DNA from: a virus
Lineage: Duplodnaviria; Heunggongvirae; Uroviricota; Caudoviricetes
DNA length: 42,125 nucleotides
IMG/VR virus record: IMGVR_UViG_2537561991_000019
Coordinates: 1-42,125 of that record
Direction: 5' to 3' (one strand)
The notes beneath the pieces were generated by a model that had not been told where the DNA came from, did not search any database, and saw nothing but the letters and a program-made list of their open reading frames with translations. Shown here piece by piece: positions 1,667-42,125 of this stretch. Every line of letters begins with the position of its first letter. Position 1 is the first letter of the stretch. The position numbers were made by a program, and so were the translations under genes.

Positions 1667-4600
1667 TCAGCTGATACTGATGCCTGCGGTGGCTTTCTTC
1701 ATCACCACAACCAGCAAATCGCTGATACTTGCTGTGGGATACCAGTTATTCACCAGCCATGCTGACACCGAAAACTCCAGCGTCATGTGACCGTGACCGG
1801 CAGGCATATCAATAACGCCACTGTAAATCAGCGTATTATCCAGCGCGGTACGGTTATAAATTTCAGCACCGTTTTTCCGCACTATCAGACGGCATGAGGA
1901 GTAAATATCAGTATGCTCTCTCTCATGTTTAGCGCCGCTGAATGCCACCGCCGGAATAACAATCTGCCGGTCAAACGGCTGATCGTCATAAACCCTGACG
2001 GTAATAGTCCCTGATGGCCACCGTTCCGGTGCACGGGAGTCCCGGGGGAAAGCTTTGCCCACTGTTTTAACGAGATCGCCTTCAATCTGGTTCGCGGACA
2101 GTTTTCCCAGAACCCGGCAGTTCTTGTTAATCGTGACGTTGTTGAGCGTCCCGGCGTTCGCATTCACGTTACCGCTGATATCCGCATTTCTCGCCGTCAG
2201 TCGCCCGTCCGGTGTCAGGGAAAATGCCGGAGGATTGCCACCACTGGTAATGGTGGGGGCCGTCAGGCGTTTCAGGAACACGTCATTCATGAATATCTGA
2301 TCACCCTGCGCCACAAACATCGGCGTTTCATTTCCGTTTGCCGGGTCAATAAACGCGATACGGTTAGCGGCAACCAGGAACTGGCTCAGTTTACCTTCCT
2401 CCGTGTCCTCCATGCTGAGGCCAATACCCGCGACATAATGTTTGCCGTCTTTGGTCTGCTCAATTTTGACGCCCCACATGGCATTCCATTTATCGTTGGC
2501 ATCTTTCCACTCTTTCGAAAACTCCTCCAGTTTGCTGGCGTTATCCTCCGTCAACTCGACTTTTTCCAGCAGCTCTTTACCGAGATGGGATTCGGTTATC
2601 TGGCCTTTGAAAAAATCCAGGTAACCTTCGGCATCATCGCTCGCCCGACCGACAGCCTCCACAAATGCCGATTTGCCAACGGTGTTCACACTGCGGATGT
2701 AAAAATAATAATCATGGCCCGGTTTGATATTGATACTGGCAGCTATCCAGTACAGCGCCGTGCCAAGATAGCGGGCTGTAGTTTCAACCTGCCTGATATC
2801 CGCAATCCGCTTTTCCGAGAACCAGAACTCAAACTGTACCGTCGGATCATAAACGGCAAGATGGGGCGTGGCGGTTATCTGAAAATAGCCCGGCGTCAGC
2901 TCAATCCGCGACGGCGCTGCCGGTGCGGCAATCCGGAACGATACCGATGCAGGATCGCCCTGCTGCCCCCAGGCATTTGCCGCCCGGACTGTCAGCCTGT
3001 AGCTTCCCAGCGCCAGCTGCCTGAAGCGGTATGTGGTTTCCGTCGTCCGGGCCGTGCTGACCAGCCGCTCACTGCCGTCATCCGCTGCCACGGTCAGGCG
3101 AAGCATAAAGCTCACACCCTTCACCACCTTCGGCGTATCCCAGCGCGCCAGCACCTGATATTCCCCGCTGTCTGCGGTGACTTCTGCGGTCAGGTGCTGC
3201 ACCGCTGGCGGCGTGACACCATTCACCGTGCCGCTCTGTTCGCCGTCAAAGTGCGCCCCGTTATCCACGATGGCCTCTTTTTCCGGCACATGCTGCACGG
3301 CGGTGATGGCATACGTGCCGTCGTCGTTCTCACGGATACTCACGCAGCGGAACAGTCGCTGGCGCAGCGTCGGCAGCTTCAGCCCCCATACGCTGTATTC
3401 AGCAACACCGTCAGGAACACGGCTCACTTTCACCTTCACGCCGTCGGTGACGGACTGAACCTCCACGCTGACCGGATTGCCACTTCCGTCAACCAGGCTT
3501 ATCAGCGTGGTACCGGAGGATGGCAGCGTGATTTCACGGTCGAGCGTCAGCGTCCGGGTCTGGCTGTTCACCGCCAGCACACGACCACCGGTGCTGATAC
3601 CGGCATAGTCATCATCACAGATTTCAATAACATCGCCCGGTACATGGCGAAGCCCTTCTGCGCCGACGCTGAAATCCACGGTCTGCGTTTCCAGCAGTTC
3701 TGTTTTAATCAGCCACAGCCCGGCGCGGTGTGCCTGCCCCCGACTGGTACAGCCAAAGGCATCCATCTTCGTGACGTTACGACCGTAACGGGCAATGGCC
3801 TGCGTGTCCTCCACAAGCTCTGTCGCCGTCTCCCAGCCGTTATCCGGGTCAATCCAGTTCACCTCAACGGCATTATGGCGATCCTTCAGGGCGCTGAAGC
3901 TGTAGCGGAACGGCGCGCCATCATCCGGCATCACCACATTACTGCGGTTATAGGTCCATACCTTATCCGATGGCCGGTCCTGCACGAACGTCAGCGTCTG
4001 CCCGTTCCATACCGGCATACAGCGCATCGCCGAACAGAAATCGCTGAGCACATCCCACGCCTTGCGCTGTGTGGTCAGCCAGGCATTACAGGTGATGCGC
4101 GGCTCCGTGCTGCCAAAGCCGTCCGGCACCGACTGGTCGCAGTAGTGGCCGATAACATACAGCGCCCATTTATCCACATCTGCCGCACCAAGACGTTTCC
4201 CCATGCCGTAGCGCGGGTGGGTCAGCATATCCCACAGACACCAGGCCATGTTGTTGCTGTATGCCGGTTTAAACGTTCCGTCCCAGATACCGCTGTATTG
4301 CCGCGTCTGCGGGTTATAGTTCGACGGCACCTGCAGAATACGCCCGCGAAGATGATAATTACGGCTCACCTGCTGGCTGCCGAACTGCTCCGAATCCACC
4401 TTTACGCCGACCAGTGCCGTGTTCGGGTAGCCCTGTTTCACATCGATGATTTCGGTGTATGACGACCAGAGCGTTTTGTTCTGCAGCTGGTCTGTGGTGC
4501 TGTCCGGCGTCATCCTGCGCATCCGGATATTGAACGGGCGCGGAGGCAGGTTATCCACCACCACCGAGGCCAGATACTGCGAGGTGGTTTTGCCCTTAAT

Positions 4601-23388: not shown

Positions 23389-23616
23389 TTACTGGCAGCG
23401 TCTGAATTTATTCCCGTACCCGCCGTTATCCTTCGCCAGCCCCGCCAGAACTAACTGAGTCAGTATTAACTGGCACCGGGCTTCGCTTACTCCGGTAGTT
23501 CTCGTCATCATGCGTGGCGTTACCCACTTGTCAGCAGGTAAGAAATGAAGGACTGCGGCGGCGGTTTCTGTCATATCTTGCTGTTTTAGCATGTCTTTTT
23601 CCCTTCTGGTTAACAT
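23389..23616 (-). CDS. Small hypothetical protein
   Basis: 75-aa ORF (or shorter from an internal Met with AGGG upstream) between the upstream terminator and the methyltransferase gene. Confidence 0.3.
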   Translation of the reverse strand: MLTRREKDMLKQQDMTETAAAVLHFLPADKWVTPRMMTRTTGVSEARCQLILTQLVLAGLAKDNGGYGNKFRRCQ

Positions 23617-23711
23617 GACATACCAATAACTCTTGTCTAAAAAGCCAGCAAGATAAAAAGTCAGTATTCACGACCACCAGCGTGTTTACTGTACTGCACC
23701 AAGTTTACAGG

Positions 23712-23742
23712 TACAAAAAACCCGCTCAGTGGCGGGTTTAAG
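23712..23742. terminator. Bidirectional intrinsic terminator downstream of the uncharacterised cargo gene
   Basis: AAACCCGC-CACTGA-GCGGGTTTTTTG on the minus strand; the same stem is flanked by an A-run and a shorter T-run on the plus strand. Confidence 0.55.
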
Positions 23743-23868
23743 TTGTGTGGCGAAGTAACCACTCTTAACACACTAATAGCATTTTTGTTATAACACAAGT
23801 AGCTCATTCAGTATTTTTAGAATCTTGACTTTCTTAAGCACGGCGAACTCTGAATACCAAACATAAAA

Positions 23869-24486
23869 TCAATTATCTTCCAGGCCGGATGCTATCAACG
23901 AAAGCCTCTCAAAAAACGCTGTAGCAGCCTTGTCCAAAGTTGAATAAGTACTGTATTCTCCGTGTTCGGGACCAACCACTACCCATGGTCGTCTTTTTGG
24001 GATTCGGGATTTCTCAGAAATCACTGTTCCAGATATACCAATATCAATTGTTACACCTGTTATTATTTTCTCTTCATCTCTTTCCCTGAACTCAATTGCC
24101 ATAAATGCCGTTTTTTTTCGTTTCCCGTTTTTAAAAAAATCAAATAAAGCAAAGCGATGCTCATTAAAATCAACACCCCATCGTCCTTCAGGATAAAGGG
24201 CATGAAAGTTGTCATTTACGCTCTGCATCGTCTCATAAGCTTTAACTTCTAAATCTCCATAATGCATAGATACCGCGCAGGAGTCACTGGGTAACTGTAT
24301 TTTCCCAAGATTGAAAACCTTTACTGCTCCAGAACTATGGCATCTTGCCCGCAACTTATCCCCATTTATACTAATCGGAGAAATATTCCTTAATGTTCCG
24401 GGCTGGCTCCCTCCTAAGTAAACGACTGTTAAAGATTGCTTATTTTCAATTGCATCAACTAATACATGCTCTACATTTTTATCCAT
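23869..24486 (-). CDS. Uncharacterised protein (~205 aa) in AT-rich cargo DNA between Q and the lysis genes
   Basis: Start at MDKNVEHVLVD preceded by GGGAGG; region visibly more AT-rich than the flanks; followed by its own terminator. No recognisable catalytic motif. Confidence 0.6.
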   Translation of the reverse strand: MDKNVEHVLVDAIENKQSLTVVYLGGSQPGTLRNISPISINGDKLRARCHSSGAVKVFNLGKIQLPSDSCAVSMHYGDLEVKAYETMQSVNDNFHALYPEGRWGVDFNEHRFALFDFFKNGKRKKTAFMAIEFRERDEEKIITGVTIDIGISGTVISEKSRIPKRRPWVVVGPEHGEYSTYSTLDKAATAFFERLSLIASGLEDN

Positions 24487-24561
24487 AATAACCTCCCAAT
24501 GAACAGGTATCATCAGGAGGTTATTATAAAATATGATTATTTACTTTGATTGAATTTATTA

Positions 24562-24948
24562 CTATATGTAACAATCAATTTCTAAAGATACCCCCAACAT
24601 TGCCAGACAACCGTCAATAAACCCTTCAGCTTTCTGCAGTCTGATAACAACCTGATTAAGTGATATCCCCAGTTTTACCCCCAACGCCCGTAATGTAACC
24701 CCATACACATAATACATTTCCAGTAATTCGTATTGATACGGTTCCTTTTTCTTAAGAACTGTCATCGCAGAGCTAATGATCAGGCCATCGTCATCGCTAC
24801 ATTGCGGGCGGGATTTTACTTTCGAAGGAATTAATCCCTTAAAACCTGCAGCAACAGATGACCATTCCACATCCTCGTGATTATTTGCCACCCATGCCCC
24901 CCAACGTTCAAGAACCATTTGAGTATCACGCATCAACTTTCTCCACAA
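24562..24948 (-). CDS. Late-gene antiterminator Q (QuuD-like short Q family)
   Basis: ~123-128 aa, ...MRDTQMVLERWGAWVANNHEDVEWSSVAAGFKGL..., resembling the remembered DLP12 QuuD; sits just upstream of the late region. Start could be the Met at 24933. Confidence 0.7.
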   Translation of the reverse strand: MWRKLMRDTQMVLERWGAWVANNHEDVEWSSVAAGFKGLIPSKVKSRPQCSDDDGLIISSAMTVLKKKEPYQYELLEMYYVYGVTLRALGVKLGISLNQVVIRLQKAEGFIDGCLAMLGVSLEIDCYI

Positions 24949-24950
24949 AA

Positions 24951-40808: not shown

Positions 40809-41108
40809 GTGCAGCCGGTTTTGATGGAGAAAATTATGAACACCTTGTTTTTACTGATGGCTGAATTCAATACCCCAAACATTGAGCTGTCAGCTGTATG
40901 CCAAAAGTATTTCGGTATGAGCCCTAACACAGCAGAAGCGAAAGCAAATGCATGCCAGTTGCCGATCCCGACTTATCGTGTTGGTACATCACAGAAAGCA
41001 AAGCGCTGCATCAACATTCAGGATCTTGCTGAATATATAGATAAACGGCGTGAAGAAGGCAGAATTGAATGGGAGAGGGTAAGAACAAATAGGAAAATAA
41101 ATAACTAA
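40809..41108 (+). CDS. PrtN-like phage transcriptional activator / excisionase-like DNA-binding protein
   Basis: ...MNTLFLLMAEF...INIQDLAEYIDKRREEGR... resembles the PrtN (pyocin activator) family; last gene of the plus-strand operon. Start Met uncertain. Confidence 0.45.
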   Translation: MQPVLMEKIMNTLFLLMAEFNTPNIELSAVCQKYFGMSPNTAEAKANACQLPIPTYRVGTSQKAKRCINIQDLAEYIDKRREEGRIEWERVRTNRKINN

Positions 41109-41112
41109 TCTC

Positions 41113-41143
41113 ACAAAAAACCCGCTTCGGCGGGTTAGTTTTC
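41113..41143. terminator. Bidirectional intrinsic terminator between the convergent operons
   Basis: CCCGC-TTCG-GCGGG flanked by AAAAAA on one side and TTAGTTTTC on the other; sits between the plus-strand gene ending at 41108 and the minus-strand gene ending at 41135. Confidence 0.6.
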
Positions 41144-41569
41144 ATCTTTATAATTCTGGGCAATTCGCGCCAGATAGCTCATCACATCATGTTTTCTTGC
41201 TTTTTCATGTGCATCGGGATACATAATAGCAATGAGTGAATATTTATTCTCATAAAGCTCACCTTGGACATACACAAGACAAGCATCATTATCAGGATCA
41301 CCTTTCTTGCAGACCCTATCCGGTTGTGGAAGTTTCTCGGGAAACTTGTTTGGCGGTAGACAAAGATGGATATGCATCAACCCAGCCCGAAAAGCACCAT
41401 AAGGCTGAGTATACGCAACGTCCCTACCGAAATAATGCGGAAGCTCACCGGTTGCTTTGTATCTCTTGAAATCATCAATGATAGAAGACTCTAGCTCCGG
41501 GAATTTGAGAAAAACTTCATCAAAAAATTCAGCTCTAGTTTCTGGATTAATAGAGACTTCTAGATGCAT
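41135..41569 (-). CDS. Hypothetical protein, possibly a YafO-family toxin
   Basis: 144 aa; several motifs (...HYFGRD...HIHL...LVYVQG...SLIAIMYPDAHEKAR...) resemble my recollection of YafO-family mRNA interferases; AT-rich locus. Memory-based and unverified. Confidence 0.3.
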   Translation of the reverse strand: MHLEVSINPETRAEFFDEVFLKFPELESSIIDDFKRYKATGELPHYFGRDVAYTQPYGAFRAGLMHIHLCLPPNKFPEKLPQPDRVCKKGDPDNDACLVYVQGELYENKYSLIAIMYPDAHEKARKHDVMSYLARIAQNYKDEN

Positions 41570-41585
41570 GGTCGTCCGCTATCGG

Positions 41586-42125
41586 TTAGTGAAATTGCAT
41601 CGATTTTAGCTTATTTGATGTGTGACTAGCTAGTGCTGCAATTCCAGCAAGATCCGCGCGCCCGCTAAAAGTAACAGTTTCTTTAAATATGCTCTTTATG
41701 TAATTGTTAAGGCGAGTGACAGATGAGCGAGCTTTAGCAATATGACGCCAGTAAACCTTCAGTTCTGACCTGATAAATTCAGGCAGAGGCGATTCAATTG
41801 TACGCTTCACTTCTTCTTCAAAAGCACGCAGGAACATTTCGCATGCCTCTGTCGTATCTGTCCCGTTTTTGGAAACAAACTCGCGAGCATCTTGGCTATT
41901 AAGATCAATCAAACAGATATAGTAGTCATCTGCTGCAATTGTTAACTTTTGCAAGATCTCCTTACCCTCTTCCATTTTGCGTGAGAATTCCTCAACAGAA
42001 GGAGAGTACTCAAAAGGTTTAGCAATCACAGGGGCTGGCTGGATGATGAACTCCTGCGCCATAGCAGCAGGACAAGCCAGAGGCCCGCACAATGCAGCAA
42101 AAGTAATGGCGTTAAACGGATTCAT
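41586..42125 (-). CDS. Hypothetical protein with signal-peptide-like N-terminus, upstream partner of the possible toxin gene
   Basis: 179-aa ORF whose first codon is at the very edge of the window (may extend beyond); 17 nt upstream of the YafO-like ORF. Confidence 0.4.
   Translation of the reverse strand: MNPFNAITFAALCGPLACPAAMAQEFIIQPAPVIAKPFEYSPSVEEFSRKMEEGKEILQKLTIAADDYYICLIDLNSQDAREFVSKNGTDTTEACEMFLRAFEEEVKRTIESPLPEFIRSELKVYWRHIAKARSSVTRLNNYIKSIFKETVTFSGRADLAGIAALASHTSNKLKSMQFH

Follow-up and report, generated by a model that had tools for sequence, protein, structure and literature searches.

The right edge of a lambdoid Escherichia coli prophage, IMG/VR record IMGVR_UViG_2537561991_000019 (positions 1 to 42,125; this whole stretch of 42,125 nucleotides is herein referred to as the window), carries two adjacent genes on the minus strand. 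The upstream gene (41586..42125, 540 nt) encodes a protein of 179 amino acids (aa), herein referred to as the partner. The downstream gene (41135..41569) encodes a 144-aa protein of the YafO family, herein referred to as the toxin. An initial annotation, made from the sequence alone, had placed two open reading frames (ORFs) at these positions, where both were confirmed, and had left three options for them: an orphan toxin, a non-canonical toxin-antitoxin pair, or a two-gene defense cassette. The two genes are a horizontally mobile module, obligately paired and having a promoter and a terminator of their own. The partner is a new, all-helical protein family of about 180 aa that takes the place of YafN. 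The toxin is a new member of a known family, and the partner family and the pairing appear to be new. We see an even chance that the cassette is a non-canonical, toxin-antitoxin-like module of a YafO toxin and its partner, which would serve for abortive infection or exclusion and/or for retention of the prophage or phage-plasmid.

Pairing and mobility of the two genes

Loci were gathered with the partner and with the toxin as starting points, as well as from IMG/VR, and 106 loci were scanned with hidden Markov models (HMMs) of both families. Each YafO-like gene with available upstream DNA is preceded directly, on the same strand, by an ORF of the partner family, and these ORFs represent 50 distinct partner sequences. 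The sole exception is yafO of E. coli K-12, which is preceded by yafN. The gap between the partner and toxin genes ranges from -1 to 35 nt over 50 distinct pairs. In the window, the spacer (CCGATAGCGGACGACC, 41570..41585, minus strand) has 16 nt, one less than the 17 nt initially reported, and contains only a weak Shine-Dalgarno-like GGA. More divergent pairs found by tblastn are also partner-first, namely gp17/gp18 of phage HK639, gp093/gp092 of Pseudomonas aeruginosa phage YMC11/02/R656, and the pairs of a Klebsiella IncFIB plasmid and of SSU5-like phage-plasmids. In total, more than 50 distinct pairs were found, distributed among prophages of Enterobacterales and Pseudomonas, HK639, and phage-plasmids of Klebsiella, Enterobacter, and E. 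coli. Because the synteny of both families is strict across these pairs and across many insertion contexts, the orphan-toxin option was rejected; the non-canonical pair or two-gene cassette held up as a module.

The pairs occupy unrelated insertion sites. In Escherichia and Phytobacter-like hosts, the cassette is located beside att and xis. In the siphovirus prophages of Serratia, Pantoea, Providencia, and Enterobacter, it lies between the genes for the tail chaperone and the tape measure protein, and in the myovirus prophages of Photorhabdus, Yersinia, and Gilliamella it is found in the baseplate or tail modules. In phage-plasmids, the cassette adjoins an integrase gene. The copy on the Klebsiella IncFIB plasmid is flanked by two IS5 elements.

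Several genera share the same slot, directly after a gene for a DUF6246 tail-chaperone-like protein and before the tape measure gene (loci L004, L005, L018, L024, L056, L057, L070, and L073), which suggests a recurrent moron insertion site in the siphovirus tail module. In Yersinia (locus L015, 2328-3176), the cassette is located in a myovirus tail module right after a ParD-ParE pair and an extra ParD fragment, the whole forming a small cluster of toxin modules. YafO-like genes with 28-51% identity are also carried by about 611 plasmids, mostly non-mobilizable IncFIB replicons of about 110 kb from Klebsiella and Enterobacter. By their sequences, most of these replicons look like SSU5-type phage-plasmids. 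A partner-family gene was found upstream in all four of the plasmids opened among these ~611 (one such locus is NZ_CP083052.1, 4577-10026).

No third component of the module was found: no small upstream ORF is common to the clades, and the only shared family there is the C-terminus of the neighboring tail chaperone gene. No Rfam RNA was detected at E<0.1. A type III layout was rejected, as tandem repeats cannot fit into the 16-nt spacer. This spacer and the weak Shine-Dalgarno sequence of the toxin gene are consistent with a single operon with possibly coupled translation. Published prophage and tailocin surveys list the YafO toxin without any antitoxin; these surveys probably overlooked the upstream partner.

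The toxin and partner families

The toxin (WP_000549966.1) was compared with profiles of the YafO family, a check that the initial annotation had proposed along with the YafO resemblance. It matches Pfam family PF13957 (YafO_toxin) with 76.5 bits at a gathering cutoff of 25, positions 1-100 of the 101-position model being aligned with residues 35-141. The identity to YafO of E. coli K-12 is 36% over 117 residues (E 2e-19). The NCBIfam equivalog model for YafO, NF007377, yields 75.8 bits and requires 153. Therefore, the 144-aa protein is a member of the YafO family and not a YafO ortholog. It has the RelE-like alpha/beta (BECR) fold, and this YafO/RelE fold takes up its whole length; the proposed resemblance was thus right at the level of family and fold.

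In an alignment of 32 sequences including K-12 YafO, 13 residues are invariant: F34, P44, F47, G48, P56, H66, I67, H68, L98, V99, Y100, P118, and H121. The run H66-I67-H68, encoded by positions 41366..41374 of the minus strand, is among them. Together with F47, G48, L98, V99, Y100, P118, and H121, these three are candidate active-site residues. YafO of K-12 is described as arresting translation by mRNA cleavage (Zhang et al., 2009; Christensen-Dalsgaard et al., 2010). The toxin has no match in PADLOC-DB 2.0.

The partner (WP_001067896.1, "hypothetical protein") matches phrog_8416 with E=3.9e-86. No family for it was found in Pfam, NCBIfam, or PADLOC, the only hit in PADLOC-DB 2.0 being an unrelated model at E=0.017. 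Pfam and NCBIfam scans of 28 diverse members of the partner family revealed neither a recurrent family nor a DNA-binding domain. Searching the PDB with the family profile returned no meaningful match, nor was there an informative fold match, and BLASTP detected no similarity to YafN (E 1.7). The family is small: it comprises 22 clusters at 90% identity among 5.8 billion proteins and 23 representatives at 50% identity among 1.84 billion, and a profile scan of genome contigs with a narrow family alignment gave matches in the genomes of only 4 species.

All members of the partner family are about 170-205 aa long. Codons 44-175 of the window partner (41601..41996, minus strand) encode a predicted five-helix bundle. 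The positions conserved family-wide are Y69, E96, R100, E103, R133, and L165, as well as the motif FESxIDxxxLxxLA and a C-terminal F-H. The partner diverges far faster than the toxin, with identities between clades of 15-25% for the former vs. 47-52% for the latter. In two phage records (PV340560.1, 222-761; PV340571.1, 206-742), the partner is named "YafM antitoxin", and elsewhere it is "hypothetical". This label was tried and is unsupported, since the partner has no similarity to K-12 YafM/RayT or YafN. The family and its pairing with YafO are undescribed in the literature searched, which did not include the paper introducing the PhiR phages (Brenes & Laub, 2025), and are likewise absent from PADLOC.

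The hydrophobic N-terminus noticed initially in the 179-aa protein is real. Codons 1-23 (42057..42125, minus strand) encode a signal-peptide-like segment, MNPFNAITFAALCGPLACPAAMA/QEF (the slash marks the putative cleavage site), characterized through family alignments and a heuristic scan. In the window partner, the N-terminus is uncharged over 24 residues and contains a 12-residue, moderately hydrophobic h-region (mean Kyte-Doolittle value 1.88), followed by P-A-A-M-A/Q-E-F with Pro at -5, A-x-A at -3 and -1, and an acidic start of the mature part. An uncharged h-region, small residues at -3 and -1, and a non-basic mature start are all present. A basic n-region is absent from the window clade (MNPFN, no K/R), and K/R are present in most other clades. 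In the AlphaFold2 model, residues 6-24 of the partner form a detached helix with a predicted local distance difference test score (pLDDT) of 66-72. A lipoprotein was considered and rejected: neither Cys13 nor Cys18 is part of a lipobox, and most homologs have Gln in place of Cys18.

In the other clades, N-terminal sequences unrelated to that of the window are built alike, mostly with a basic n-region: MARTKIPFSKVAMLSLALSVSTSCA/Q, MKTTLSICAAALSMALSSPNVLA/R, MNLSLRSCLAVVLFGGVLSVPSFSA/G, and MKDSITKIAMVVALALSSLSHGSYA/K. A rule-based signal heuristic passes 49 of the 50 distinct partners and none of 49 toxins. The heuristic is weak and its result no more than supportive, because 17 of 87 arbitrary ORFs of the window pass as well. 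Distant members from phage-plasmids also have a signal-peptide-like N-terminus. The stronger argument for export is that the N-terminal character is kept while the sequence is not. On these grounds, the window partner is quite probably a Sec substrate.

Among the partners of the window clade, conservation is highest in residues 1-23, with a mean pairwise identity of 0.84 vs. 0.59 for the bundle, and codons 1-33 show a nonsynonymous divergence (dN) 3-6 times lower than that of the remaining codons. Synonymous sites have nevertheless diverged, the proportion of synonymous differences (pS) being 0.21-0.72 in codons 1-33 vs. 0.72-0.90 elsewhere; nucleotide-level constraint behind the N-terminal conservation is only partly supported. 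The N-terminus (~25-30 residues) is likewise more conserved than the mature domain in the Pseudomonas-type clade (0.83 vs. 0.48). No extra N-terminal conservation was found in the Photorhabdus clade. In the clade of HK639 and the Klebsiella plasmids, the hydrophobic core is short and is accompanied by a conserved AAxxGLLMQQ, aligned with FAALCGPLAQP in the window clade. One sub-clade (pJN2-26, CMS-2020a) lacks the hydrophobic N-terminus and retains the helical core and the C-terminal F-H, which argues that the core function of the partner can be cytoplasmic.

The locus at the prophage edge

The terminal 1.4 kb of the window matches the temperate phages PhiR40_1 and PhiR55_1 with 100% identity and was found whole in 48 of 5,426 complete E. 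coli genomes. The right edge of the window (42125) coincides with the ATG of the partner gene, and the initial annotation had allowed for an ORF continuing beyond it, even as the tail of a larger unrelated gene. Both were excluded. The matching phage and chromosome records (PV340560, NZ_AP022351), through which the sequence was extended rightward, contain the same gene annotated with the identical 540-nt extent, a GAGG Shine-Dalgarno sequence lies 5 nt upstream of the ATG in the matching records (outside the window), and all full-length homologs begin at the same Met; the partner gene is therefore complete. Many proviruses of IMG/VR (loci L027-L055) likewise end at the partner ATG or at the toxin ATG. 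Therefore, boundary trimming at gene edges routinely severs the cassette from its promoter or halves it.

A sigma-70-like promoter, TTGACC-17-TAGACT, was found beyond the window edge, 54-82 nt ahead of the partner ATG (locus L001, 4480-4508). It falls in the ~200 bp that separate the partner gene from the attachment site beside zur. The promoter spacer holds a 10-bp palindrome, AACCGCGGTT; its counterpart in Enterobacteriaceae ENNIH3 is AACTCCAGTT, in which the outer arms are still complementary. This palindrome could be an operator or a chance occurrence.

At the other end of the cassette, a terminator-like hairpin, AACCCGC-TTCG-GCGGGTT, is located at 41119..41136 (3420-3437 of locus L001), its 7-bp G+C-rich stem standing between an A-run and a T-run. 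The hairpin scores as an intrinsic terminator on both strands and overlaps the stop codon of the toxin gene (41135-41137, minus strand) by 2 nt. It lies between this stop codon and the end of the gene for a PrtN-type excisionase (41108, plus strand) and is common to the cassette and the converging early-left operon, as the initial annotation had described. The excisionase gene (40836..41108, plus strand, extent according to PGAP; PF11112, 84.8 bits; phrog_1300, excisionase) is the last gene of that operon. The integrase gene is located at the opposite end of the prophage from the excisionase gene, and the cassette is therefore the outermost cargo at this end. The prophage is integrated beside zur, with attP lying between int and the cassette (PV340560.1, 40960-42057 and 1-1511; locus L002, 7427-7850).

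The cassette is more AT-rich than the phage backbone, as initially noted, with 42.6% GC vs. 52.2% in the remaining window. Only 2.5% of windows of equal size are as AT-rich, all of them within one other island (~23.4-24.9 kb). This second island (23400-24950, GC 0.38-0.41) contains the gene for the Q antiterminator (24562-24948, minus strand, PF06530) and, after it, a 214-aa ORF (23869-24513) whose only match, WYL-like, is sub-threshold. The latter ORF may be another moron.

Proposed mechanism, alternatives, and known systems

If the pair is a toxin-antitoxin-like module, the cassette would be a self-contained two-gene prophage moron, expressed from the promoter just outside the window, between att and the first gene. 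The downstream protein of the YafO family and RelE fold would be the effector, an endoribonuclease-type enzyme that, by homology with K-12 YafO, would cleave mRNA and arrest translation. The upstream protein would be its dedicated partner, neutralizing or gating the toxin. In a lysogen, the pair could act against other phages through abortive infection or exclusion and/or could stabilize the prophage or phage-plasmid. If the N-terminus is a cleavable Sec signal, the toxin would be met in the cytoplasm either by the precursor or by a form that is exported slowly or tethered to the membrane; otherwise, the control would be indirect. We only infer the toxicity, the neutralization, and the biological role of the cassette.

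This proposal draws on the identity of the toxin, the obligate pairing, the mobility of the two genes as a unit, the lack of a third component, the low GC content, the promoter and terminator belonging to the cassette, and the fast evolution of the partner. Additionally, the partner-first order, the short spacer, and the weak Shine-Dalgarno sequence of the toxin gene fit the logic of a type II operon. Several observations weigh against it. As the initial annotation had remarked, the partner is unlike the usual small antitoxin: neither an antitoxin domain nor a DNA-binding domain was recognized in it, and it is not similar to YafN. No conserved operator-like palindrome or inverted repeat was found upstream in six loci, and neither protein matches a PADLOC defense model. 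Moreover, nearly all partner clades bear an N-terminus resembling a cleavable Sec signal, and a protein of the periplasm cannot sequester an RNase in the cytoplasm. The cassette does not qualify as a canonical type II system: the partner has no DNA-binding domain and looks exported, and neither operator-like repeats nor a LexA box was found.

The exported look of the partner is the starting point of two other explanations. According to the first one, which we consider rather unlikely, control is coupled to export: the partner is exported by Sec, only its precursor can touch the toxin, and the rate of export would set the level of the regulator in the cytoplasm. The precursor could be a neutralizer continually removed by export, or an activator that is ordinarily held apart from the toxin and builds up once an infecting phage disturbs the membrane potential or Sec. 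In this way, the cassette would act as an abortive-infection switch reading the integrity of the envelope or of export. Such control would explain why the signal-like N-terminus is universal and why it is unusually conserved. The signal character is kept across clades with unrelated N-termini, even at 28-36% toxin identity, and the c-region of the window clade, QPAAMA/Q, is a textbook site of signal peptidase I, comparable to that of the PelB leader. The extra N-terminal conservation in two clades and the low dN suggest a job of the pre-sequence beyond targeting, and an n-region without basic residues, as in the window clade, should slow export. These points are countered by the sub-clade without a signal-like N-terminus, by the Photorhabdus clade with its ordinary N-terminal conservation, and by the permissiveness of the signal heuristic toward arbitrary ORFs; additionally, literature searches found no precedent. 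It is doubtful that the full chain holds, with the partner truly exported, a transient cytoplasmic precursor controlling a RelE-fold RNase, the activity set by Sec export, membrane energization, or envelope integrity, and an incoming phage sensed in this way.

The second explanation treats the two genes as independent cargo. The partner would be a periplasmic protein of lysogenic conversion or superinfection exclusion, and the YafO-like protein an unconnected orphan toxin, either inactive, expressed only weakly, or restrained by a factor of the host, for instance chromosomal YafN. The exported look of the partner fits this explanation, as do the surveys that list YafO without an antitoxin and the moron positions in tail modules and beside att, which are typical of exclusion genes. 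However, the pairing is strict down to ~15-20% partner identity and ~30% toxin identity, at many unrelated sites and in many genera, which is unexpected for independent genes. The short spacers (3-16 nt) and the weak Shine-Dalgarno sequence of the toxin gene suggest coupled expression, and the toxin retains all the residues invariant with K-12 YafO. Furthermore, the hosts include Gilliamella, Photorhabdus, and Pseudomonas, in which a rescue by E. coli-type YafN cannot be assumed. We therefore regard independent cargo as improbable.

An inter-bacterial toxin-immunity pair, with the RNase released, for example, at prophage-induced lysis to hit neighbors and the exported partner guarding kin at the envelope, would agree with BECR-fold RNases being common warheads of polymorphic toxins and with immunity proteins of the periplasm usually bearing signal peptides, but it is very unlikely, as the 144-aa protein is filled entirely by the YafO/RelE fold and lacks a secretion signal and any domain for delivery, receptor binding, or translocation, and as immunity to nucleases acting in the cytoplasm is normally cytoplasmic.

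Under any of these explanations, the pairing changes how YafO-like genes are read. Reports on prophages, tailocins, and phage-plasmids routinely treat YafO-family genes as orphan toxins, the upstream gene always being "hypothetical". A whole YafO clade, spanning prophages of Enterobacterales and Pseudomonas, HK639, and ~600 plasmids of Klebsiella, Enterobacter, and E. coli, now has a dedicated and previously unrecognized partner family. This is a new pair to be modeled by toxin-antitoxin and defense-system finders, and the label "YafM antitoxin" is corrected. If the partner is indeed exported, the cassette would challenge the rule that a protein antitoxin shares the compartment of its toxin, and it would represent a toxin-antitoxin logic in which export, not proteolysis, renders the regulator labile. 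It would also be a simple two-gene system in which export as a mechanism of lability or as an infection sensor could be studied. The phages PhiR40_1 and PhiR55_1 are in culture, and these ideas are thus directly testable.

Among the known systems, YafN-YafO of E. coli K-12 (dinB-yafN-yafO-yafP) is similar in having a toxin of the same family, PF13957, with shared invariant residues, as well as a partner-first gene order and a short gap. The differences concern mostly the partner, which is unrelated to YafN, twice as long, all-helical, and provided with a signal-peptide-like N-terminus; the toxin, in turn, remains under the equivalog cutoff. Moreover, the cassette is a prophage moron, whereas the K-12 pair sits in the LexA-controlled dinB operon, and no LexA box was found near the cassette. 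The ribosome-dependent mRNA interferases RelE, HigB, YafQ, and YoeB share the BECR fold with the cassette toxin, which is only 6-17% identical to them and has an extra N-terminal region of three helices. Their partners are small cytoplasmic DNA-binding antitoxins, unlike the partner described here. Canonical type II systems in general share with the cassette the bicistronic layout of adjacent genes on the same strand with a short gap; the cassette differs from them in having no small DNA-binding antitoxin (ribbon-helix-helix, helix-turn-helix, Phd/YefM, or AbrB) acting through an operator.

HK97 gp15, lambda Lom and Bor, and T4 Imm and Sp are examples of exported exclusion or conversion proteins. 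The cassette resembles the morons encoding such proteins in its site at att or in a tail module, its own promoter and terminator, its low GC content, and the exported look of the partner. These morons, however, are single genes without an RNase toxin, and no similarity of sequence or fold between their products and the partner was found. Homologous counterparts in isolated phages are the pairs of HK639 (gp17/gp18) and of P. aeruginosa phage YMC11/02/R656 (gp093/gp092), in which members of both families occur in the order seen in the window, 8 nt apart. They are located at other insertion sites and are annotated only as "hypothetical protein" and "YafO family toxin". Their toxins are 44-51% identical to that of the window, and their partners are matched by the partner-family HMM at E 1.6e-46 and 5.8e-15, respectively.

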